From: Heteroscytonema crispum UTEX LB 1556
GTDB lineage: Bacteria; Cyanobacteriota; Cyanobacteriia; Cyanobacteriales; Nostocaceae
Direction of reading: 5' to 3'
Assembly (NCBI GenBank): GCA_044006015.1
Contig: JBIPDF010000002.1
Coordinates: forward strand, 24,666-88,665
DNA length: 64,000 bases
Shown piece by piece: positions 4,203-64,000 of this stretch. Both the position numbers and the translations under genes were made by a program. Under the pieces are notes generated by a model. It saw nothing but the letters and a program-made list of their open reading frames with translations. It did not search any database and was not told where the DNA came from. How positions within the stretch are numbered: position 1 is the first letter of the stretch; every line of letters begins with the position of its first letter.

Positions 4203-4205
4203 AGA

Positions 4206-4488
4206 GGGCAATGGGCAATGGGCAATGGGCAATGGGCAATGGGCAATGGGCAATGGGCAAGGTAAATAAATTAGTTTTTATAATTCCCAATGTTTAATTC
4301 CCAATGTTTAATTTCCAATGTTTAATTTCCAATGTTTAATTCCCAATGCCCAATTCCCATTGCCCAATTCCCATTGCCCAATGCCCAATTCCCAATTCCC
4401 ATTGCCCAATTCCCATTGCCCAATGCCCAATCCCCAATTCCCAATTCCCAATGCCCGATGCCCAATGCCCAATGCCCAATACCCAATG
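4206..4488. repeat. STRR array: 8 direct GGGCAAT heptamers followed by a ~220 bp block of complementary-type heptamers (CCCAATG/CCCAATT/CCCATTG); potential long imperfect hairpin
   Basis: Read directly from the sequence. It lies exactly between the stop of the + strand receptor gene (4202) and the stop of recN on the - strand (4490). ORFs 4065..4253 and 4318..4626 are translations of the repeat. Confidence 0.9.
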
Positions 4489-6238: not shown

Positions 6239-6429
6239 ACAAAATTCTCCGTTAAGGCAGACGCCGGATAGTTACAACTTCAAAGACACTAGAGATAACG
6301 AATGAGCAAAGTTCAATACCAACTACCATTGAAAAAACTGAGGAGTCGAAATTGAGTGTAACAAACCTAGTTTAGTTTGGCTGCGATAACCATTGGTAAA
6401 GGCGATAGCTTTCTTAATTTAGAACAAAG

Positions 6430-6600
6430 TTAGTGGTTGGTGGTGAAGCGCGTACTGCGGTCGGGTTTCCCTCCTAGTACTGGTTCTCCCGAAGGGTCGT
6501 TGGTTGGTGGTTGGTGGTGAAGCGCGTACTGCGGTCGGGTTTCCCTCCTAGTACTGGTTCTCCCGAAGGGTCGTTGGTTGGTGGTTGGTGGTGAAGCGCG
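6430..6600. repeat. Tandem repeat, unit ~68 bp, about 2.4 copies (ggttggtggtgaagcgcgtactgcggtcgggtttccctcctagtactggttctcccgaagggtcgtt)
   Basis: Direct repetition is visible at 6430-6499, 6500-6569 and 6570-6600. The reverse complement of the unit recurs in degenerate form at 51110-51410. Confidence 0.8.
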
Positions 6601-12026: not shown

Positions 12027-13085
12027 TTATTCTTCGTAGCGACTGACGCGGAAAATTACATAATTGTAAGGAAGCGTATAACTATTATCTCTATTGACAA
12101 TCGCGCCCATCTCTGGTTTGTAAACCCATTGTTTCCAATCAATTGCGATTTCATTAGAAACCTGTACCGCAATATAATTTCCCTCGGCTAGGCGACACCC
12201 CATAGCCGAATTTTCAAAGTCCAATCCCAGAAAAAATTTCTGTACAGCAACATTTTTATTGCGTTGCGCCAGTAATTTTACTACTCCCAAAGTAATTTCT
12301 GTAAAAGGCGCGATCGCTGGTTGGGCTGTTGTTAAAAGTTTGAGTCCACTTTGAAAAGGTGAAGATTCTAATGCTGCTAATATTGTCTGGTCTTCCTCAT
12401 TTTTAACGTTCACCGTCGAGCATTCAAAGGCTACTCCCTGAGAACCCACATTTAAACCAATAAACACAGGGTAGCCAGAAATACCAGCAGACTGTCCCTC
12501 TTGTACGCGGTAAGTTTGGCTGAAGCTGACTGACTCTTGCGTGTCGGCTACTTGATTGCGGACAGCAAAAGTAACCATAACATTGTGCGTACCTTCCCCA
12601 GGATACTTTTCAATATGCAAGCGATCGAGACGAATGTTGATGCGGCTGTTTTTGAGAGTATTATCGGGTTCAATTGCGCTGGGATGTTCGATGGGTTGAG
12701 ACTTCATTAAACCTGATTTACGAGGTGCAATGTAGCCAAATTTATGCGTTGTATACATCCAGGGTTGGTCATGGACTAAGTTTAAAAACTTTAAAATCCC
12801 TTTGTCATACAAAGTTGCGGTCAAAAGTAACCCTTTGGGCGATGGGTGGTGGGGTGGTGGGGTGATATTGTTCTCCCTATCTCCCCATCTCCCTATCTCC
12901 CCATCTCCCGATGCCTCAGTTACTATTTTTGAATGCAACTTAGTATCACCCTGTTCTAGATTAGTATCTCCCACAACATCGCTCTTGACATCGGGGTCTT
13001 TCATCTGTTGCAGCTTTGCAGCTATCCATTTAGGGTCTTCGGATTCGCCAATAACCTTGATGTCATCGAATACACTACTGAACAC
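12027..13085 (-). CDS. Hypothetical protein, no recognisable domain; disordered N-terminus (~90 aa) partly encoded by an STRR array
   Basis: Long ORF with plausible cyanobacterial codon usage. Positions 12840-12900 (ggtggtggggtgg...ccccatctccctatctcc) encode PPPHHPSPKG...GDGEIGRWGD. It lies 27 nt upstream of the caspase-like fragment on the same strand. Confidence 0.6.
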   Translation of the reverse strand: MFSSVFDDIKVIGESEDPKWIAAKLQQMKDPDVKSDVVGDTNLEQGDTKLHSKIVTEASGDGEIGRWGDRENNITPPPHHPSPKGLLLTATLYDKGILKFLNLVHDQPWMYTTHKFGYIAPRKSGLMKSQPIEHPSAIEPDNTLKNSRINIRLDRLHIEKYPGEGTHNVMVTFAVRNQVADTQESVSFSQTYRVQEGQSAGISGYPVFIGLNVGSQGVAFECSTVNVKNEEDQTILAALESSPFQSGLKLLTTAQPAIAPFTEITLGVVKLLAQRNKNVAVQKFFLGLDFENSAMGCRLAEGNYIAVQVSNEIAIDWKQWVYKPEMGAIVNRDNSYTLPYNYVIFRVSRYEE

Positions 13086-16966: not shown

Positions 16967-16983
16967 TCAGGAAGAGGAGAGGG

Positions 16984-17180
16984 GGCAATGGGCAATGGGC
17001 AATGGGCAATGGGCAATGGGCAATGGGCAATGGGCAATGGGCAATGGGCAATGGGGCAGAAGGAATGAACTGCCTACCTCACTTCACTACCCATGAAAAT
17101 CCGTCTTTCCCATCCCTAATACCCAATGCCCCATGCCCGATGCCCAATGCCCAATGCCCGATGCCCAATGCCCAATGCCT
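16984..17180. repeat. Inverted pair of STRR arrays: GGGCAAT x~10, then CCCAATG/CCCGATG heptamers after a ~65 bp spacer
   Basis: Read directly. It lies between the ruvB stop (16966) and the start of the TPR gene (17228). ORF 17002..17184 is a repeat translation. Confidence 0.9.
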
Positions 17181-27350: not shown

Positions 27351-27354
27351 AAAA

Positions 27355-27478
27355 GGGGCAAGGGGCAATGGGCAATGGGCAATGGGCAATGGGCAAAGAG
27401 TGCTGTGAAATAACAAACAGGTTCTTCTCTATACCCAATGCCCAATGCCCGATGCCCGATGCCCAATGCCCGATGCCC
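27355..27478. repeat. Inverted pair of STRR arrays (GGGCAAT x5 ... CCCAATG/CCCGATG x6) between convergent genes
   Basis: Read directly. It is flanked by the stops at 27350 (+) and 27481 (-). Confidence 0.9.
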
Positions 27479-28742: not shown

Positions 28743-30548
28743 TTAGCTTCCCTGCTGTTCTACAAGCTGCCAAAGTTTGATAGTCTTGTCCCTGCTGCCA
28801 CTAGCAATCACTCGTGCAACAGGGCTAACAGCAACGGCTGACACACAGTCTATATGACCGCAAAGAGTAGCAATTTCTTCTAAATTACTTACCTTCCATA
28901 ATTTGACTGTCTTGTCCCAACTCCCACTAATCAGTGTTTCCCCATCCGCACTAAAAGCCACTGTCACCACCGACCAGGAATGGCATAAAAGTGTACGAAT
29001 CAACTGACCAGTGTTTAACTCCCACAATTTAATAGTGTTATCTTCGCTACCCGTAACCAACATTTTCCCATCGGGACTGAAAGCGACTGTTAAAACCGCC
29101 CATGCATGACCTAAAAAGGTATAATCTGGGCGGTTTTTAACTTTTTCAGCTAATTTCCACAAGCGAATTGTTCGATCAAAACTAGCGCTGGCTAAAAATT
29201 TTCCATCGGGACTAAATGCTACTGAACTTACTTGTAATTGATGTCCTGTTAGGGTGCAAATTTCTTTATTTGTATTTACATCCCAAAGTTTGATTGTTTT
29301 ATCCCAGCTACCACTGGCTAGCAGCTTTCCATCTGGACTGAAAGCCACTGATTTTACAGCGTGTGAATGTCCTTTGAGGGTGAAGATTTCCTCAAAGGTG
29401 TTGAGATTCCACAATTTGATAGTTTTATCATCGCTAGCGCTGGCGAGAATTTTACCATCCGGACTGAAAGCCACTGATTTTACAGCTTGGGAATGTCCCA
29501 TGAGAGTGCATAATATTTTTTTAGTGTTTAAATCCCATAATGCGATCGCTTTATTATCATGACCGCTAGCTAAAATCCCCCCAAACCCCCCTTCATCAGG
29601 CGGGCTAGGGGGGATCGGACCGATCGCGATTGAATTCACGCCACTCAACATGGCAGAATGTTCGTTGAGGGTGTGGGAACAACGCCATTGCGAGTTGGTA
29701 GTTGGTAGTTGGTAGTTGGTAGTTGACGGGTGATAACTGTAAAAATCAGGATTAATCGCTTGTATAACTTCCGAGGCTGATTGAAAGCGACGGTTAACAG
29801 CATTTTGCAGCAACTTGTCCAGGATTTTTGTTAGGCGATCGCTTACTTTAGTTGTGAGATAATCTTGCCAAGCCCAGCCATTATTCGCAACATCAAACAA
29901 ATCAAAGGGCGGAATGTGAGTAAGTAAATAAATGCAAGTTACACCCAAGCTATAAATATCACTTGCCAATACGGGTTTACCCTTAGTTAGTTCGGGCGCG
30001 GCATACTCCGGACTGCCGATAATGCTTGTGTTAGTTAGCGGTTCAATTTCTGAAGTTAATTGAGCAGTAGCAAAATTTACCAAAAACAAATCTATCCTGT
30101 CCCCCCTTTTTAAAAGGGGATTTAAAGGAGATTTCAAAATAATATTTTCGGGTTTAATATTGCAGTGAATAACATTGCAATCATGAATAAACTTGAGAAC
30201 AGGCAAAACATACTCTAAAAGTTGCCAAATTTGACTTTCACTAAAAGCACCCTCCTCCTCAATCAAACTTGCCAAACTGGAACCTTCAATAAACTCCTGC
30301 ACCAAATAGAAATACTCTTCCTCTGGAAAAAAATCTAAAAATGCCGGAATTTGTGGATGCTTTCCCAATTCTGCTAAAACCTGTGCCTTTCGTTGAAAAC
30401 TTTCAAAACTTTGCTTTTGCAGCGAAAATTGTTGAACCACACAAGAAACTCCCGGACATTTACCTTCATCCACAGCAAGAAAAGTTTTGTATAATCCCCC
30501 CTTACCAATTACTTCAACTAAACGATAACGTTCTTTTAAAACATTCAT
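28743..30548 (-). CDS. Ser/Thr protein kinase with C-terminal WD40 beta-propeller (7 repeats)
   Basis: N-terminal kinase (GKGGLYKTFLA..., HCNIKPENIIL, NFATAQ, GSPEYAAPE). The C-terminus has repeated GHSxAVxSVAFSPDGKxLASGSxDKTIKLW units. The linker contains an STRR-encoded QLPTTNYQLPTTNSQ. Confidence 0.9.
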   Translation of the reverse strand: MNVLKERYRLVEVIGKGGLYKTFLAVDEGKCPGVSCVVQQFSLQKQSFESFQRKAQVLAELGKHPQIPAFLDFFPEEEYFYLVQEFIEGSSLASLIEEEGAFSESQIWQLLEYVLPVLKFIHDCNVIHCNIKPENIILKSPLNPLLKRGDRIDLFLVNFATAQLTSEIEPLTNTSIIGSPEYAAPELTKGKPVLASDIYSLGVTCIYLLTHIPPFDLFDVANNGWAWQDYLTTKVSDRLTKILDKLLQNAVNRRFQSASEVIQAINPDFYSYHPSTTNYQLPTTNSQWRCSHTLNEHSAMLSGVNSIAIGPIPPSPPDEGGFGGILASGHDNKAIALWDLNTKKILCTLMGHSQAVKSVAFSPDGKILASASDDKTIKLWNLNTFEEIFTLKGHSHAVKSVAFSPDGKLLASGSWDKTIKLWDVNTNKEICTLTGHQLQVSSVAFSPDGKFLASASFDRTIRLWKLAEKVKNRPDYTFLGHAWAVLTVAFSPDGKMLVTGSEDNTIKLWELNTGQLIRTLLCHSWSVVTVAFSADGETLISGSWDKTVKLWKVSNLEEIATLCGHIDCVSAVAVSPVARVIASGSRDKTIKLWQLVEQQGS

Positions 30549-41134: not shown

Positions 41135-43036
41135 TTATTCAACGGTAACACTTTTTGCTAAATTTCTCGGCTGATCGACATCTAAACCGCGACGGGCTGC
41201 AATATGATAAGCCAGTAATTGCAAGGGAATTACCGTCAATATCGGTGAAAGTAACTCATCCACATTTGATACAGTCAGCAAATCATTAAAAATTTCCGCC
41301 GCTTCACCATCTTTGCTGGGAGTAACGCCAATCAAGCGAGAATCGCGGGCTTTGGCTTCTTGGGCGTTAGAAATCACCTTTTCGTAAACACTACCAGGCA
41401 TTGCGATCGCTATTACCGGTACTTTCGCATCTAATAAAGCGATCGGTCCGTGTTTCATTTCCCCCGCAGGATAACCTTCGGCGTGAATGTAGCTGATTTC
41501 TTTTAATTTCAACGCGCCTTCCAAAGCGATGGGGAAGTTAATTCCTCTTCCCAAAAATATGAAATCTTGGGTTTCGGCAAAGTCATGTGCTAGATGTTCG
41601 GTGAGTTTTTCCTGACTTTCTAAAGTTGCTTCAATTTGCTTGGGGACGTGGCGCAAACCAGCAATAATCTCCTCGAATCTATCTGGGGAAACTGTTTGAC
41701 GGCGATAAGCTAAATCCAAGGCCAAAGCATAAAACGCCATTAATTGAGCTATAAAAGTTTTTGTCGCCGCTACCCCAATTTCAATTCCTGCGAGGGTATT
41801 GATAATATGCGGTACCATCAAACCCAAGCTGCTTTCCGGACGATTCGTAATGCCTAAAAGTCGCGCTTGATACTTAGGTTCTTTTGCCAAACGGCGTTCT
41901 TTTTCCATCGCCAAAGCTGCTAGGGTATCAGCAGTTTCCCCGGATTGAGTAACGCCAATGGTCAATGTATTGGGCGTCATGGGTGATGGTGCATAGCGAA
42001 ATTCCGAGGCATAGTGTACCTGAGTCGGAATTCCTGCCAGTTGCTCAAGTAAGTATTTACCCACTAATGCTGCGTGCCAACTAGTACCGCAAGCGACGAT
42101 TTGAATTTGTTCTAAATCTGCGTAAAATTCTCCAGGCAAGCCAAGGTTAATTGGTGACTGGGCAGATTCAGTTGAATTGCCATCAGAGTTAAAATAAGCT
42201 TCTAAAGAATCTCTTACCACTCCTGGTTGCTCGTAAATTTCTTTGAGCATGAAGTGTTTGAATCCCTGTTTTTCTACCATCGTGGGACTCAAATTGAGCA
42301 TTCGCGGTTGTTTTTTCAACCTGTCGCCAGCAAAGTTGTAAACTTCTACTCCCAAAGGTGTTAGACGTGCCATTTCACCATTTTCCAGTGCTAGTACCGC
42401 ACCGGTATGAGAAACGATCGCCGGCGTATCAGAAGCGCAGAAAAATTCCCCTTGACCAAAACCAATCACCAAAGGAGCTTGTTGGCGTACGACAATAATC
42501 TCATCAGGGTAGTCTGCAGAAATAACAGCGATCGCAAATGCCCCCTCGAGTTTGTTCACAGTTTGGCGAATTGCGTCCAAAAGGGGAGAGGGGGAGAAGG
42601 GGAGAGGGGGAGAGGGGGGGTTCTTAAGAAATTCGGCGATTAGGTGGGGGATTACTTCAGTATCGGTTTGGGAACGAAACTGATGTCCTTTTTGTTTCAA
42701 TTCCTCGCGTAACTCGCGATAGTTTTCAATAATACCATTTTGCACCACCGCCACCCGCATTGCCGTATCCATATGAGGATGGGCGTTGTATTCTTCTGGT
42801 TTACCATGAGTTGCCCAGCGAGTGTGACCAATACCAATTTGGGCTGGGGTTTCTAATTGTTCGAGTTTGGAACGCAAGTTATGCAGCTTGCCCTTTGCCC
42901 GCACGCAATTAACCTCACCTTCCCAAACGGTAGCGATTCCCGCAGAATCGTAGCCGCGATACTCGAGTTTTTCCAATCCAGTCAGTAAAATTTCTGTCGC
43001 AGCTTGAGTGCCAATATAACCAACGATTCCGCACAT
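41135..43036 (-). CDS. glmS: Glutamine--fructose-6-phosphate aminotransferase (isomerising)
   Basis: MCGIVGYIG N-terminal nucleophile Cys; two SIS domains (GTSWHAALVGKY, SQSGETADTLAAL); C-terminal DQPRNLAKSVTVE. Contains an STRR-encoded in-frame insertion NPPSPPLPFSPSPL (42580-42625). Confidence 0.95.
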   Translation of the reverse strand: MCGIVGYIGTQAATEILLTGLEKLEYRGYDSAGIATVWEGEVNCVRAKGKLHNLRSKLEQLETPAQIGIGHTRWATHGKPEEYNAHPHMDTAMRVAVVQNGIIENYRELREELKQKGHQFRSQTDTEVIPHLIAEFLKNPPSPPLPFSPSPLLDAIRQTVNKLEGAFAIAVISADYPDEIIVVRQQAPLVIGFGQGEFFCASDTPAIVSHTGAVLALENGEMARLTPLGVEVYNFAGDRLKKQPRMLNLSPTMVEKQGFKHFMLKEIYEQPGVVRDSLEAYFNSDGNSTESAQSPINLGLPGEFYADLEQIQIVACGTSWHAALVGKYLLEQLAGIPTQVHYASEFRYAPSPMTPNTLTIGVTQSGETADTLAALAMEKERRLAKEPKYQARLLGITNRPESSLGLMVPHIINTLAGIEIGVAATKTFIAQLMAFYALALDLAYRRQTVSPDRFEEIIAGLRHVPKQIEATLESQEKLTEHLAHDFAETQDFIFLGRGINFPIALEGALKLKEISYIHAEGYPAGEMKHGPIALLDAKVPVIAIAMPGSVYEKVISNAQEAKARDSRLIGVTPSKDGEAAEIFNDLLTVSNVDELLSPILTVIPLQLLAYHIAARRGLDVDQPRNLAKSVTVE

Positions 43037-43929: not shown

Positions 43930-43980
43930 TTGTCCCCCACACCCGTCCCCCCCTCTCCCCCTCTCCCCCTCTCCCTTGCC
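43930..43980. repeat. STRR (CCCCCTCT-type C-rich heptamers)
   Basis: ccccacacccgtcccccctctccccctctccccctctccc read directly in the intergenic region. It is the same motif as the G-rich STRR inside glmS on the other strand. Confidence 0.7.
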
Positions 43981-47021: not shown

Positions 47022-47387
47022 ATGGAGCCAGACTCTCTACCAACCGAGGTGATTCTGACCCACCCGCGTCAGTCCCTCGGCAGCGTTAAACTTGATTGGA
47101 CACCGCAGCCCGGAAACTATCTCGATTTAGAAGGCGAAACCTACGCGGTTTTAGAGCGCCGTCACCGGTATCAATTGAAAGCAGGGCGCTACCGCTTGCA
47201 AAATATAGCCATTTACGTACAATCGGCAAAACGGCCATCAGAAAGAAGTTTGGTTGACGGACGTTGGGTAGTCGGCGATGCAACCTGTCGCTACAATGCT
47301 CATTCAGAAATCATTCGCTGTGCAGTCAACCCAGAAGGACTGTGCAATTCTTGTCGATTCTACGAAAAGTTAGGAGTCTTGAGTTAG
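47022..47387 (+). CDS. Hypothetical protein with C-terminal Cys cluster (CxxNPEGLCNSC)
   Basis: 121-aa ORF with good coding look. It resembles conserved cyanobacterial hypotheticals, but no family was assigned. Confidence 0.5.
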   Translation: MEPDSLPTEVILTHPRQSLGSVKLDWTPQPGNYLDLEGETYAVLERRHRYQLKAGRYRLQNIAIYVQSAKRPSERSLVDGRWVVGDATCRYNAHSEIIRCAVNPEGLCNSCRFYEKLGVLS

Positions 47388-47580
47388 GAGTTATGAGGCG
47401 CCCAGTTATGAGTTATGAGTGATGAGTTTTGAATGCGTGAATTAGGAGTGACCAAGGATGGCTAACTCTATAAACTTCAACTTTTAACTTTGCGCCTCCT
47501 CACTCCTAATTCCTCACTGGGCGCCTCAAGACTCCTAACTGGGCGGCTGGGCGGCTGGGCGGCTCCCAAACACTTCTCCT
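47380..47580. repeat. Palindromic STRR block (GTTAGGAGT/ACTCCTAAC heptamers plus GGGCGGCT x3) spanning the 3' ends of two convergent genes
   Basis: gttaggagttatgag... and ...cctcactcctaattcctcactgggcgcctcaagactcctaactgggcggctgggcggctgggcggct. The last repeats encode the fmt C-terminus RPAAQPPS. Confidence 0.8.
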
Positions 47581-49608: not shown

Positions 49609-51006
49609 TTGCTGTCTAAGCATTGCTCCTCGCACTGCAACCGCCCTCTAGAGAGTCAACACATGCTTAAACCCCTTTTGCTGTCAGGATGGTTCCGCGT
49701 ACAACCGTTTTTAAAGTATGTTGTACTTGTAATCTTAATCGCGCCTTTCGTGGCTGCCTCTGGTCACTCGAGTTCGGCGACACAATCAGAAATAGCTAGA
49801 AGCAACTCCGCGGCCAGGGAATCTGACTCTGTGTCAGGGGAAATAGCTGCCGCAAGCAAATCTGATTTCTCTGATTACAATGTCATAAATGAAAATCAAA
49901 TCGGTTCATTGACAGAAGAATCTGTGACTGTGCCAAATGAAATGACTGCTGTTGTGGAACCGCAAGTATTACCAGCAGATCAAACAGATCAAACAGAATC
50001 TTTAATAGCAGAAAATGGTTCCTCCTCTAGGGAGGCGTTGACGACTGATAAATTGGCAGTGGTTCAACTTGCGCCATTCCCAACAGAATTTGACTCTGTT
50101 TCTCAGCAAATAAGCAAAAGCCAAATGGATTTAGCGCAAAAATTAAAAGTCGCTAAAATTCAATCTTTGAAAAAGATGAATGGCGCTGATTCGTCGATAG
50201 TAGCTAAAAATTCTGCTTCATTGAGGCAATTGCAACCAATCCAACCACAAGAAGTACCGGCTGTAGCACAACCCCAACAATCTGAAGAAGTACCTCAAGA
50301 CCCGTTGGGAAGTCCTCATCCGATTCCGTGGAAATGGATAGTGTCTACCCATCAGGCTGTTAGTGCTAACGGTGGTTCTGGAGTGCGCTATTATCGCAGC
50401 GTGCCAGTGATGTCACCGGATGGTAGGTATGCAGTTTACAGCCGCGTGCAATTAGAAGTCAAGCCGGAAATGTACAACAGCCGCGTCACCAGCGTCTTGT
50501 TTGTAGAAGATACCCAAACCAAGAAATTGCGAGTTGTAACTTCAACGACTCGCATCAGCGATCCCTTGTTGGCGACAAAAGCAAAAGTATCAGTAACGTC
50601 ACCACAACCCGAGGAAAATGGGACAATTGGGGTATTGGTTCCCGTTAGCTGGTCGCAAAAAGGCGATCGCTTTTTAGCACGTCGCTTTGAAGCAATATTC
50701 AATACTGCCGACCTTACAGACAGCGCAGTTATTTGGGATCGGCAAAAAAATAACACCAATACAGTTTCTCCCACAGTCGGTCATGGAGAAGATGAGCATG
50801 AGAAGATTGCGATATTGTTAGGTTGGAGTAAAAACCAGCCAGACAACGTACTGTTCCGTGTTGGTGAAATGGGCGAGGAAAATTGGCCTTTGGTGCAAGT
50901 AGCTAGTGATGGTAAGACTGTAACTACAACAGATGTAGATCAGCCTGTTACCTATAGTGACAACGTTTCGGACATTTGGGCTGGTCCTCAAGTCGCCTAC
51001 AGATAA
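49609..51006 (+). CDS. Hypothetical secreted protein (signal peptide, Ser/Glu-rich disordered region, ~230-aa C-terminal globular domain)
   Basis: A likely true start lies at an internal Met (MLKPLLLSGW..., near 49663), followed by a hydrophobic stretch VVLVILIAPFVAASG. No recognisable family. Confidence 0.5.
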   Translation: MLSKHCSSHCNRPLESQHMLKPLLLSGWFRVQPFLKYVVLVILIAPFVAASGHSSSATQSEIARSNSAARESDSVSGEIAAASKSDFSDYNVINENQIGSLTEESVTVPNEMTAVVEPQVLPADQTDQTESLIAENGSSSREALTTDKLAVVQLAPFPTEFDSVSQQISKSQMDLAQKLKVAKIQSLKKMNGADSSIVAKNSASLRQLQPIQPQEVPAVAQPQQSEEVPQDPLGSPHPIPWKWIVSTHQAVSANGGSGVRYYRSVPVMSPDGRYAVYSRVQLEVKPEMYNSRVTSVLFVEDTQTKKLRVVTSTTRISDPLLATKAKVSVTSPQPEENGTIGVLVPVSWSQKGDRFLARRFEAIFNTADLTDSAVIWDRQKNNTNTVSPTVGHGEDEHEKIAILLGWSKNQPDNVLFRVGEMGEENWPLVQVASDGKTVTTTDVDQPVTYSDNVSDIWAGPQVAYR

Positions 51007-51109
51007 TTTCTCGAAAGATAATAATCTTGATAATATCTCCCGTTTTAGTTGTTGGCTAGAACGGGAAATTTTTTTGTTATTAGTTATTAGTTATGAGTCA
51101 TTGGTAACT

Positions 51110-51410
51110 AACCACCAACGCGATCGCGCTTCACCAGTTACCTGCGCGAGTGTTACCAAAAGCGCAGTACGCGCTTCACCACCAACCACCAACAACCCTT
51201 CGGGTTCGCAGTTGCAACAAGCGGGGGAACCCGTCCACCGCACTGCTCACCAACCACCAACCACCAACAACGCGATCGCGCTTCACCAGTCGCCTGGGTC
51301 GGGAAACCCTACCAAGGGCGCGAAGCTCGCCGGAGGGAATCTTCCCTCCGGCAGACTTCGCGCCCCAACACCCACCAACCAACAACCAACCACCAACAAA
51401 TTTATTGTGA
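51110..51410. repeat. Degenerate inverted copies of the 68-bp repeat family seen at 6430-6600
   Basis: cgcgcttcaccaccaaccaccaacaacccttcggg and gcgcagtacgcgcttcacc are reverse complements of unit segments ggtgaagcgcgtactgcg / cccgaagggtcgttggttggtggttggtggtgaagcgcg. ORFs 50957..51439, 51150..51410 and 51176..51415 are repeat translations. Confidence 0.6.
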
Positions 51411-51704
51411 AGCATCGCTGCTTTCCAATTCAGGTGTAGTTGTTTTCACGCGACGAATGGGCAAATTGGCAATTAAGGCTGTTGTCCTATCGTTGCTTTC
51501 TAGGGAAAATTCCAAGCCGTCTGTCTCGACTTCCACGTAGCGACAGACGATTTCGAGGATTTCTTGCCGCATTTTTTCTACCATTTGAGGGCTTAAATCG
51601 GCGCGATCGTGTGCAATTACCAATTGCAGGCGACGTTTAACTTGAGTGCGACTGGTGTCACTACTACGAAAAAAAAGTCGTTCTAGAAGTTCGAGAATCA
51701 TTGC
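51402..51704 (-). CDS. minE: Cell division topological specificity factor MinE
   Basis: [52 protein letters not shown] is the classic MinE N-terminal helix plus QLVxxHDR. The start is chosen at the internal Met, 33 nt after the minD stop; the ORF track's longer version starts at 51737. Confidence 0.85.
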
Positions 51705-52564: not shown

Positions 52565-52780
52565 AGGGATCGGGAACTATAAGAAGTATGAAGTATGAAG
52601 TATAAAGTGTGAAGTGTGAAGTATGAAGTATTAAGTTAGGAAGTTATGAAGTATTAGGCATTTTAGACCTTGAATATCCCCCCAACCCCCTTTTTAAGGG
52701 GGGCTTTGAGTAAGTACTGTTTCATTTTGCTTTTATCCTTCATCCTTCATCCTTCATCCTTCATCCTTCATACTTTAATT
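52565..52780. repeat. Inverted pair of STRR arrays (GAAGTAT/GAAGTGT ... CTTCATC) in the minC-minD intergenic region
   Basis: gaagtatgaagtatgaagtataaagtgtgaagtgtgaagtatgaag ... cttcatccttcatccttcatccttcatccttcatac read directly. Confidence 0.85.
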
Positions 52781-52781
52781 T

Positions 52782-53915
52782 TTATGCCTCTTGATTATTT
52801 ATCCTACTTATTTGGGTTCGGGAAAAATCAGTAGCCTTGGTGATGCGAATTCCTGTTGGGATAATGTATGCCACTTCCGGATAAAATTGCATCGGTGATT
52901 TTTCTGGTGCCCTAGCTACGGCGTCTGCTATCCGTAACTGGGTTGGTTCCATTTGCAATGCCATTATTAGACAATCAGTTTTGCCCCCTGCACCGGCGTG
53001 AGCAATTCCACGCAAACGACCCCAAACTAGAATATCTCCATCTGCGATTACGATACCACCTGGGTTTACATCTCCCAAGATAATTACAGTACCGGGATGG
53101 CGAATTTCTAATCCCGAACGTACTGTCATTTCGAGATAGAGGGCGTCTGCTAGGGGTGTGGGGGCGGTGGTAGATGCGGAACTCAAACTGGGTTCTTGCT
53201 GTAGTTGTTCTACAGAATACCCGGCTGAGACGGCTGCGATCGCGGTTTGGCGACGGCTGGTAGAAACTGATTTTAACTGGAGTTGGATTTCTCTCAAAGT
53301 TTCGGCAATTTCTTGTAACTGTCTGCCATCCAACAGGCGATCGCGTGCGATTAAATGTACCGTTGTGTTGGGTACAAAAAAGCGATCGCCTGCCAATAAT
53401 CGCAGTTTCATTTGTTGCCAAATCTCAGATAAACCGTATTCTGAGGCTGGTACTTGCGATTCTGTTGGTAATATTAATAACAGCTTTCCATCTTCACTTT
53501 TAATCTGAACTTGGATATTCGGATTCACCGCTTTTTCTGGTGGCGGCGTCTCGGTATCATCTCCACCCCATAGTATATAATTCGACTCTATATTATCCAG
53601 TGTTTCCGGATTTGAAGATGTAGAATTTGACTCTATATTATCCAGTGATTCCGAATTTGAATATGTAGAATGTGACTCGACATTCTGAAATGATTCAGGA
53701 TTTGAATGTAAAAATTGCAGGACAGAATCGACCTCTGTGTCGGGGAGAATAGAATTTGACTCGACATCATAAACAACAGAATTTGATTCTGCTACCTCAG
53801 AAACAGCAGAATTTGATTCTGCTGCATCAGAACCAGCAGAATTTGACTTCTTATCGGGGATAGCAGAATCGTAAGTCATGCAACACCAGCCAAAAGAACC
53901 GAAAACAGCAAGCAA
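52782..53915 (-). CDS. minC: Septum formation inhibitor MinC with a long repetitive N-terminal extension
   Basis: C-terminal beta-helix domain GTVIILGDVNPGGIVIADGDILVWGRLRGIAHAGAGG. The N-terminal ~110 aa are an ESNS/DNIESN-rich low-complexity stretch encoded by nucleotide tandem repeats (53560-53880). The true start is uncertain. Confidence 0.8.
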   Translation of the reverse strand: MLAVFGSFGWCCMTYDSAIPDKKSNSAGSDAAESNSAVSEVAESNSVVYDVESNSILPDTEVDSVLQFLHSNPESFQNVESHSTYSNSESLDNIESNSTSSNPETLDNIESNYILWGGDDTETPPPEKAVNPNIQVQIKSEDGKLLLILPTESQVPASEYGLSEIWQQMKLRLLAGDRFFVPNTTVHLIARDRLLDGRQLQEIAETLREIQLQLKSVSTSRRQTAIAAVSAGYSVEQLQQEPSLSSASTTAPTPLADALYLEMTVRSGLEIRHPGTVIILGDVNPGGIVIADGDILVWGRLRGIAHAGAGGKTDCLIMALQMEPTQLRIADAVARAPEKSPMQFYPEVAYIIPTGIRITKATDFSRTQISRINNQEA

Positions 53916-62986: not shown

Positions 62987-64000
62987 TTAACGTGCCCCAC
63001 AAGCAGCAGATGTCTGCCAATAACGCTGGGATTCGCTGCTGGTGGGATTATAAGCTGTAAGTACCACCTCACCTTTATCATTCAATACCCATCCTTGGGC
63101 AGGCACAATTGGCTTTGAAACAGAAGCATTTTTCTTTATTCCCCCACTCCCCCCTTCCCCCACTCCCCCACTCCTCATAGCGACAGGCGAAACTAAATCA
63201 ACACGAGTATTGTCACTGCTGAGGGTTTCATTGGGTGATGGTGGCAAACCGCCGCGTCCAGTCACCACGAATTCATTTTTTGCACCTTGTTGGCAGGGAT
63301 TTTGTGCCACCTGCTGTTTGGGATCGATGACAGTTTCTGGTAATTCAACTAATCCCCTACTGGGGTCGGTTTCTGGGGTTTGAATACTCACAGTACCGTC
63401 TAGAGATGGTTTTTGTGCTGAAAAGGCAGTGATATCATTAGTAGATAAATTTTTCGGGTCTAAATCTTTAACACCCAGTCTTTCAAGTTCAGCCCGAGTG
63501 CGTTGCACTAGTCCAAAAATGCCAGCAGAATTAATTGCAATCTTTCCTCCCTGACCGCCGGAAGCATCGGCTGTAATATCACTATTTTCTAAGGGAAAGG
63601 CAATAATTAAGCCATCAGGAGCATTAATTGTGATGTTACCGCCATTACCATTTGCTTTGGCGGATATTTGACTGTTGCGACGTAGCAGCAATAATTTAGC
63701 AACGTCTAGTCTCAGGTTGCCACCATTGCTAGATGTAGCAGTTGCAATTATCACACTTTGATTATCAAGTCGAATGGTATCTGCTACAACATTCAAAGTT
63801 CCAGCATTGCCAGAAGCATTAGCTTTACTTTCAACTCGCAATCTTCCATTGTTAAGATTTATAGTTTTTGCTGTCACATTCAGCGTTCCTGCATTGCCTT
63901 TGCCCTCGGTTGATGTTTCAATTCCACTATTGTTATTGATTGCTAAAGATTCGGCATTAATGTTGATTTCTCCCGCGCTACCTTTGCCAGAAGTTTTTGT
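62987..64000 (-). CDS. Filamentous-haemagglutinin-like beta-helix repeat protein, C-terminal part; the N-terminus lies beyond the window end
   Basis: Repeated GNAGTLNV..A.TI.L.N / GGNI.INA beta-helix rungs. The reading frame stays open from 63877 to the window end (TKTSGKGSAGEININAESLAI...). Confidence 0.7.
   Translation of the reverse strand, partial: TKTSGKGSAGEININAESLAINNNSGIETSTEGKGNAGTLNVTAKTINLNNGRLRVESKANASGNAGTLNVVADTIRLDNQSVIIATATSSNGGNLRLDVAKLLLLRRNSQISAKANGNGGNITINAPDGLIIAFPLENSDITADASGGQGGKIAINSAGIFGLVQRTRAELERLGVKDLDPKNLSTNDITAFSAQKPSLDGTVSIQTPETDPSRGLVELPETVIDPKQQVAQNPCQQGAKNEFVVTGRGGLPPSPNETLSSDNTRVDLVSPVAMRSGGVGEGGSGGIKKNASVSKPIVPAQGWVLNDKGEVVLTAYNPTSSESQRYWQTSAACGAR

Follow-up and report, generated by a model that had tools for sequence, protein, structure and literature searches.

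In-frame short tandem repeats and hairpin elements within protein-coding genes of Heteroscytonema crispum UTEX LB 1556

Heterocystous cyanobacteria reportedly carry heptanucleotide tandem repeats, the short tandemly repeated repetitive (STRR) sequences attributed to work by Mazel and colleagues in 1990, and Nostoc punctiforme is said, from work of Elhai and colleagues in 2008, to harbour small dispersed repeats (SDRs), very small elements that sit in heptamer arrays and hairpins and occasionally in genes. In-frame survival of small repeats is also established for elements of the Correia and enterobacterial repetitive intergenic consensus (ERIC) types. Fusions of small repeats into open reading frames (ORFs), both internal and as 3' extensions, have been reviewed (PMC3184786), and the in-frame palindromic examples cited within that review include the Rickettsia palindromic elements (RPEs; Ogata et al. 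2000) and MITEs (miniature inverted-repeat transposable elements) of Anabaena (Wolk et al. 2010). For Nostoc PCC 7120, where G-rich heptamers have been surveyed genome-wide, heptamer repeats are in excess in intergenic DNA, scarcer than expected in coding regions and in some cases extend over a stop codon (PMC4692102). Here we analysed a 64,000-nt stretch of DNA (the window, whose positions are used throughout) from Heteroscytonema crispum UTEX LB 1556, order Nostocales, which forms part of an 847-kb contig of a metagenome-assembled genome (MAG), and in which a first-pass annotation had reported STRR arrays inserted in frame at five sites: in glmS, in a Ser/Thr kinase-WD40 gene, in a gene for a hypothetical protein of 352 amino acids (aa), at the 3' end of fmt and in the 5' region of minC.

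For each element we established its presence, frame, position and age relative to orthologs. The repeats and hairpins in question probably arise near-randomly, by insertion and expansion, with selection then filtering them for frame, absence of stop codons and structural tolerance. In-frame survival of small repeats is already known, and the present cases are new instances with no new mechanism.

Comparison with described repeats and distribution of the arrays

The window resembles the described STRR landscape in carrying short tandem units at many loci of a heterocystous host, mostly between genes or at gene ends, with a minority inside genes or over stop codons. The units belong to dispersed families, with 30 period-7/8 arrays detected in the 64 kb and the octamer family CTCCCCNT present at five loci (two intergenic and three in ORFs). 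The kinase array, with its period of 7, and the arrays flanking fmt fit the STRR description exactly, whereas four of the five named intragenic arrays are octamers of the C-rich CTCCCCNT or CCGCCCAG type and fall outside the strict heptanucleotide sense of the term under which they had been presented. Two hairpin insertions, one of 138 nt in the gene for the 352-aa protein and one of 30 nt in a WD40 blade of the kinase, are more like RPEs and MITE-ORF fusions, being palindromic, in frame, stop-free, placed at predicted tolerant sites and absent from the closest orthologs, and the fmt tail matches the 3'-terminal ORF extensions described for MITE fusions. They differ in that membership of a dispersed family is unproven for the 138-nt element, the interior of which is made of tandem octamer arrays. 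Two 74-nt units at 6429-6600, and inserts found in the KIQNPKS linkers of some kinase orthologs, are reminiscent of the context reported for the Nostoc punctiforme SDRs. Phase-variable contingency loci share with our arrays an intragenic tandem repeat of a unit length not divisible by three, but the arrays described here are short, lie in housekeeping genes and showed no copy-number polymorphism.

The intragenic arrays were located with Tandem Repeats Finder (TRF), and the period-7/8 arrays were set against an ORF map built for this analysis, in which ORFs occupy 73% of the window. Only six of the 30 period-7/8 arrays lay inside ORFs, a strong depletion given the 73% ORF share (binomial P = 1.6e-9), and a stricter detector placed 4 of 17 there. 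Period 7 was found within genes in the kinase array only, and period 8 in the arrays of glmS, the 352-aa ORF (two arrays), fmt and an ORF resembling a filamentous haemagglutinin (FHA). Octamer arrays were intragenic in five of eight cases and heptamer arrays in one of 22 (Fisher P = 0.002). The intragenic arrays comprise 2.6 to 4.8 head-to-tail units with 90-100% matches, and those in glmS, the kinase gene, the 352-aa ORF and fmt are all read on the minus strand, in frame and within intact ORFs. The coding strand of every intragenic unit was free of stop codons, the kinase heptamer being so solely in the orientation used, and all length differences from orthologs were multiples of three (fmt +24 nt, the 352-aa ORF +138 nt, the kinase gene +30 and +6 nt, GlmS indels of 3 to 24 nt).

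The host ORFs are full length when set against orthologs, the lengths of all five host proteins (GlmS, the 352-aa hypothetical protein, kinase-WD40, Fmt and MinC) equal those in the NCBI annotation, and Pfam searches confirmed all of them but the 352-aa protein. Chance cannot have produced a 36-nt array of 92% periodicity, as seen in glmS, within 64 kb, and the 14-mer CTCCCCCTCTCCCC was matched 16 times in the window at up to two mismatches, compared with 0.12 matches expected. An Rfam scan at the gathering threshold returned a tRNA-Ala as its sole match, with no known RNA overlapping any array. The first-pass claim of arrays lying in frame inside genes holds for four of the five sites, which are period-7/8 repeats in annotated genes, but not for minC, where the periods are 45 and 30 nt; the five sites are not one phenomenon. 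Its proposal that the arrays occupy permissive positions was borne out by the inter-helix loop of the GlmS model, the inter-domain linker delimited by Pfam in the kinase, a low-confidence linker of the 352-aa model and the C-terminal tail of Fmt.

The GlmS loop

The glmS gene (41135..43036, minus strand) encodes a protein of 633 aa with Pfam GATase_6/7 and SIS domains (NCBI MFH7024819.1, of equal length) and contains the octamer GGGGAGAG (CTCTCCCC on the coding strand) in 4.5 copies at 42583..42618 on the minus strand (TRF score 65, 92% matches). The array encodes NPPSPPLPFSPSPL at aa 139-152 (PPSPPLPFSPSPL being aa 140-152), exactly the peptide first proposed, and corresponds to a 12-residue loop of the glutaminase domain between helices 125-138 and 151-162. 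In an AlphaFold (AF2) model with a mean predicted local distance difference test (pLDDT) score of 90, residues 139-150 are non-helical and the block scores 79, compared with 94-96 in its neighbours. The glmS DNA and the 352-aa ORF both recur unchanged in the independent Logan assemblies SRR31418076 and SRR31418077, so an assembly artefact is unlikely for these two genes.

Set against Escherichia coli, GlmS has nine extra residues, between G138 and G139, and the spacer from TDTE to GA[FY] is 35 residues long here; of 122 diverse bacterial representatives, 112 have a spacer of at most 28 residues and only two reach 35. The segment is a surface-loop insertion relative to bacteria at large, as the first-pass annotation had it, but this does not extend to the order. 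Among 18 Nostocales orthologs recovered next to fmt, ten have a loop of equal length and related Pro/Ser-rich sequence, and the other eight are shorter by 1 to 8 residues. The Stigonema loop, SPSPSVPFSPSPF, shows 83% DNA identity to the window over the loop, and Chlorogloeopsis keeps the length with an unrelated, non-repetitive sequence. Three orthologs are without exactly 24 nt (three octamers, or 8 of the 12 residues) and form one clade nested among full-length taxa, therefore indicating a single three-unit deletion; the alternative that these shorter orthologs represent an ancestral empty site was rejected on the same nesting. By this comparison the loop appears ancient and ancestral to the sampled Nostocales, with no new invasion of glmS; equal length in orthologs was the very outcome that the first-pass annotation had named as refuting an insertion.

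The DNA of the array is more regular than this age would suggest from decay. Self-similarity at lag 8 is 0.82-0.89 in the window and no higher than 0.68 in every ortholog, although six or seven of the orthologs, like the window, have lag 8 as their best or joint-best lag; the loop of Nostoc parmelioides has no lag-8 signal. The window array sits at the centroid of all orthologs, nearest to the most distant one. Unit variants differ by lineage: the window has CCCCCTCT, Nodularia CCCCATCT and Anabaena 4-3 CACCCCCT. An intergenic sibling octamer array, CCCCCTCT in 3.4 copies at 43947..43976 on the plus strand, lies 1.3 kb from the glmS array and has an identical stretch of 22 nt in common with it. 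We infer an old octamer-derived loop whose DNA was probably re-homogenised recently in this lineage.

A separate observation concerns Chlorogloeopsis fritschii PCC 6912 (L007 and L010; ~5.65-5.69 Mb), in which the fmt-glmS neighbourhood occurs twice, inverted and about 18 kb apart; one of the glmS copies has an apparently degraded sequence, matching solely as fragments that lie in different frames.

Insertions in fmt, the 352-aa protein, the kinase gene and neighbouring loci

Fmt (340 aa, the NCBI-annotated length, used here) ends in an array of CTGGGCGG in 3.2 copies (47539-47564, minus strand) that supplies the last nine codons of the gene, SRPAAQPPS*, in agreement with the RPAAQPPS tail first reported. 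Within it, a 24-nt insertion of three CCGCCCAG units (47539..47562, minus strand) interrupts the final sense codon (AG^T), adding the eight residues RPAAQPPS while the TAG stop is preserved. None of the 81 orthologs examined has a counterpart: 80 GTDB species-representative proteins end in ...GEVFGxGS* or similar, with 0-6 residues after the conserved core, and a relative of at least 90% identity (P0517/L209) ends in GTIEL*, its stop falling within a GAGTTAT array. Judged by these orthologs, the insertion appears recent and lineage-specific. Most orthologs have STRR arrays of varying unit after the fmt stop, and in many an array of species-specific unit starts at or overlaps the stop codon; in the window a long imperfect hairpin of inverted heptamer arrays of the AGTTAGG/AGTTATG family (47350..47538, minus strand; RNA fold -81.9 kcal/mol, z = -6.3) starts at the stop. 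Both arms of this hairpin are broken at complementary positions (47395-47405 and 47513-47523) by GGCGCCCAG / CTGGGCGCC, a motif that resembles the CCGCCCAG unit of the fmt tail.

The 352-aa protein (12027..13085, minus strand) is a conserved cyanobacterial hypothetical protein whose homologs, in a largely cyanobacterial family, are nearly all of ~305 aa among the 120 best listed. It had no Pfam match, and a Foldseek search of the PDB with its AF2 model returned no significant fold, the best being C2-like beta-sandwiches (E ~0.02). The model has a mean pLDDT of 81 and a confident core (pLDDT >90 for 161 residues). Protein and DNA alignments, the latter with L082 and L083, delimit an in-frame insertion of 138 nt (46 codons, D47-Y92; 12810..12947, minus strand) exactly, save for an ambiguity of 3 nt at its boundaries. 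It splits codons that are adjacent in a homolog with 92% protein identity, has no counterpart in L082, L083 or any of the 59 aligned homologs, and lies within a segment of pLDDT <50 (residues 38-92) that links the folded core to a helix at the N-terminus. The insertion has imperfect terminal inverted repeats (TIRs) of ~24 nt, contains no stop codon and leaves the host ORF intact, and it is flanked by a TGA direct repeat which, as a candidate target-site duplication of 3 nt, is too short to tell from chance. Its predicted structure is a long hairpin (folding energy as RNA -49.5 kcal/mol, z = -4.4, with 0 of 200 shuffles as stable), the inner arms of which are two octamer arrays on the minus strand: TCTCCCCA (TGGGGAGA on the coding strand) in 4.8 copies at 12872..12909, encoding SGDGEIGRWGDRE, and GGGTGGTG (CACCACCC on the coding strand) in 2.6 copies at 12844..12864, encoding TPPPHHP. 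The peptide PPPHHPS, previously assigned to the TCTCCCCA array, comes instead from the neighbouring GGGTGGTG array. This case is best described as a hairpin element carrying arrays, not a bare array, and as an apparently recent insertion.

Exact matches to the TIRs in the window were the element's own two arms alone, other matches there being at chance level, and no further copies were found in 84 related loci. A metagenome scan for the TIR gave single-arm matches only among the matches listed (80 of 120), on contigs that include human-gut, marine and fermentation metagenomes; we read these as chance, and they say nothing either way on mobility.

The Ser/Thr kinase-WD40 gene (28743..30548, minus strand; 601 aa; NCBI MFH7024808.1) encodes a Pfam Pkinase domain at aa 8-261 followed by WD40 repeats, and its linker contains the heptamer AGTTGGT (ACTACCA on the coding strand) in 4.7 copies (29693..29725, minus strand), encoding STTNYQLPTTNS. 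The peptide QLPTTNYQLPTTNSQ offered for this site in the first-pass annotation is wrong, translation giving HPSTTNYQLPTTNSQ. The closest relative, L084 (a syntenic JGI contig, 83% protein identity), keeps the unit count but differs by two substitutions and is 6 nt shorter, an indel that is not a whole unit, while the 80%-identical ortholog L087 has at the same site another heptamer, AAAATC(C/T) in five copies, read as SKIQNLKSKIQNP. Across 112 orthologs the linker takes a KIQNPKS-like form or a decayed version of it, with small extra inserts in some. The linker is thus heptamer-derived across the ortholog family, with turnover of the unit, and not a private invasion; the different heptamers found here in different lineages, together with the different STRR units that follow the fmt stop, indicate that arrays turn over in place. 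Three orthologs (P0077, P0079 and P0086) carry short extra segments (e.g. VALKAHQRCDP and LVLSEVEV) within the KIQNPKS linker, which suggests that small elements may land within the intragenic heptamer array itself.

Missing from the first-pass annotation was a C6/G6 hairpin element in the same gene, ATCCCCCCTAGCCCGCCTGATGAAGGGGGGTTTGGGGGGAT (ATCCCCCCTAGCCC...GGGGGGAT; 29575..29615, minus strand), which adds 30 nt in frame in the first WD40 blade, at its SPDG turn. The two closest orthologs, L084 and L087, have a gap here and the distant, 65%-identical ortholog L088 has a similar sequence at the same site, so the site would have been either hit twice or the element lost repeatedly. Related hairpins elsewhere are intergenic. 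Taken over all five sites, the proposal that STRRs had invaded these genes applies to fmt (+24 nt) and the 352-aa ORF (+138 nt), both lineage-specific against all orthologs, but not to glmS, the kinase array or minC, where the loop, the heptamer-derived linker and the coding repeats, respectively, recur in orthologs.

In minC, which starts at ATG 53879 and encodes 365 aa as annotated by NCBI, TRF resolved N-terminal coding repeats of 15 and 10 residues of the ESNSxxxD type (53579..53846, minus strand; periods 45 and 30 nt). Low-complexity ESNSxxxD repeats occur at the N-terminus of all 50 orthologs compared, with copy number varying from 0 to ~8 extra. They are protein-level repetition, neither STRRs nor a product of STRR invasion. 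The spacer between minC and minD (52580-52775) contains GAAGTAT x10, a CCCCCC...GGGGGG hairpin and ATCCTTC x6, a large repeat structure between neighbouring same-strand cell-division genes.

A further in-frame octamer array, GTGGGGGA in 4.4 copies (63140..63174, minus strand), encodes SGGVGEGGSGG in a variable linker of the FHA/S-layer-like ORF 62987..63877, where homologs show other peptides of repeat-like or repeat-derived kind, such as PIQNPKSKIQNP. Each of the two tandem 74-nt units at 6429-6600 consists of a GGTTGGT heptamer array and an insert of ~50 nt, and opposite-strand relatives of these units occur at 51170-51400, in a context like that of small dispersed repeats. ORF 50957..51439 (CCAACAA x5), which spans these relatives and was a candidate intragenic case, was dropped as probably not a gene, since what it translates is repeat elements from the strand opposite to the dispersed 74-nt unit. 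Inverted GGGCAAT / ATTGCCC heptamer arrays of up to 12 units were also seen at 4203-4487, 16980-17179 and 27353-27478, each in a short spacer at a gene end where long hairpins would form.

Origin and retention of the intragenic copies

Generation followed by selective filtering, the reading that we favour, would operate as follows. Nostocales genomes would continually produce tandem arrays of 7-8-nt units and small hairpin elements, both originating through slippage and expansion, probably with a further contribution from small hairpins that move or are copied into new sites, and the majority would land at gene ends or between genes. Intragenic copies would be purged unless the added length is a multiple of three, the unit is stop-free in all three coding-strand phases and the site accepts extra low-complexity residues, as an inter-helix loop, inter-domain linker, beta-turn or C-terminal tail may do. 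Both this mechanism of origin and the neutrality of the surviving copies, which would be translated as passenger filler, are what we infer from the features above. Old survivors, such as the GlmS loop and the kinase linker, have become fixed family features, while the fmt tail, the 138-nt hairpin of the 352-aa protein and the 30-nt WD40-blade hairpin are recent ones.

Several observations weigh against this account. Purely random insertion would not predict the over-representation of octamers among intragenic arrays, and the commonest stop-free heptamer, GGGCAAT/ATTGCCC (six arrays), was never intragenic in the window, so that a stop-free unit alone is insufficient for intragenic survival. The glmS array, far more regular than those of its orthologs and nearest to the most distant of them, is left unexplained by simple decay of an ancient insertion and therefore needs recent homogenisation or replacement. 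The searches described above yielded no further copy of the 138-nt element, so its mobility is unproven. The only mild surprises are the bias towards octamers and the glmS array with its probable re-homogenisation.

For glmS, the same segment could have come about with no repeat involved, through protein-level selection for a Pro/Ser-rich loop encoded by C/T-rich codons that mimic an octamer repeat. Conservation of the loop's length and Pro/Ser-rich composition in ten of 18 orthologs is in keeping with this, as are the missing lag-8 signal in Nostoc parmelioides and the wholly different sequence of the same length in Chlorogloeopsis, which suggests that loop length is conserved and not the repeat. 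Codon-level selection should, however, favour periods of 3, 6 or 9, whereas the strongest or joint-strongest lag here, 8, is no multiple of three; the identical octamer family recurs outside coding DNA 1.3 kb away, as well as at other loci, and one clade has lost exactly three units. We regard this explanation as unlikely. Somewhat more doubtful still is the possibility that the glmS array is a 'living' repeat, in place since the ancestor of the sampled Nostocales and repeatedly re-homogenised by three-unit slippage or by gene conversion from siblings such as that 1.3 kb away, with which the lineage-specific unit variants fit. If this were so, selection may maintain the DNA repeat itself beyond the loop, for instance as a G-quadruplex on the template strand that acts on glmS expression. 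A more general role, in which arrays are maintained as G-quadruplexes or i-motifs that modulate transcription or translation, or as flexible linkers that the proteins need, draws on the five G4-7 tracts of the G-rich strand of the glmS array, the formation of G-quadruplexes in vitro by G-rich heptamer repeats of Nostoc (PMC4692102), the unusual homogeneity of the glmS array and the conserved lengths of the GlmS loop and kinase linker. This we consider very unlikely, given that the G-rich strand is the template in glmS and the sense strand in the 352-aa and FHA-like ORFs, that sequence varies freely between orthologs to the point of being unrelated in Chlorogloeopsis, that three orthologs have lost 8 of the 12 loop residues, and that close relatives whose proteins are otherwise near-identical lack the recent insertions.

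Phase variation, in which slippage of single 7- or 8-nt units would toggle the genes as contingency loci, is made conceivable by the frameshift that any one-unit change would cause and by the similar use that other bacteria make of simple repeats close to gene termini (Lin & Kussell, as cited in PMC4692102). It is nonetheless highly improbable here: the arrays have 3-5 units, switching off housekeeping genes such as glmS and fmt would be lethal or costly, the two Logan assemblies show no difference in repeat number for glmS or the 352-aa ORF, the closest kinase relative departs by point substitutions and a non-unit 6-nt indel with its unit count kept, and GlmS loop length is stable across the order. 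Errors of assembly or annotation, or decay of the host genes into pseudogenes, might be suspected as the source is a MAG, short-read assemblers are poor at tandem repeats and exact look-ups did not find the kinase and Fmt proteins in other assemblies. With the separate Logan assemblies in agreement for glmS and the 352-aa ORF, all host ORFs intact and full length, and homologous loops and linkers present in many independently sequenced genomes, we see an artefact as extremely improbable.

For the annotation of Nostocales genomes, the result cautions that low-complexity Pro/Ser, Gly/Glu and KIQNPKS-type stretches in proteins may often be repeat-derived passengers, and that gene ends are frequently set by the first units of an STRR array. 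This one 64-kb window offers a clean, dated series of small non-coding repeats turning into protein sequence, in three age classes: insertions at the level of strain or species (the fmt tail and the 138-nt and WD40 hairpins), a kinase linker that the closest relative also has and that turns over among orthologs, and a GlmS loop at the level of the order.

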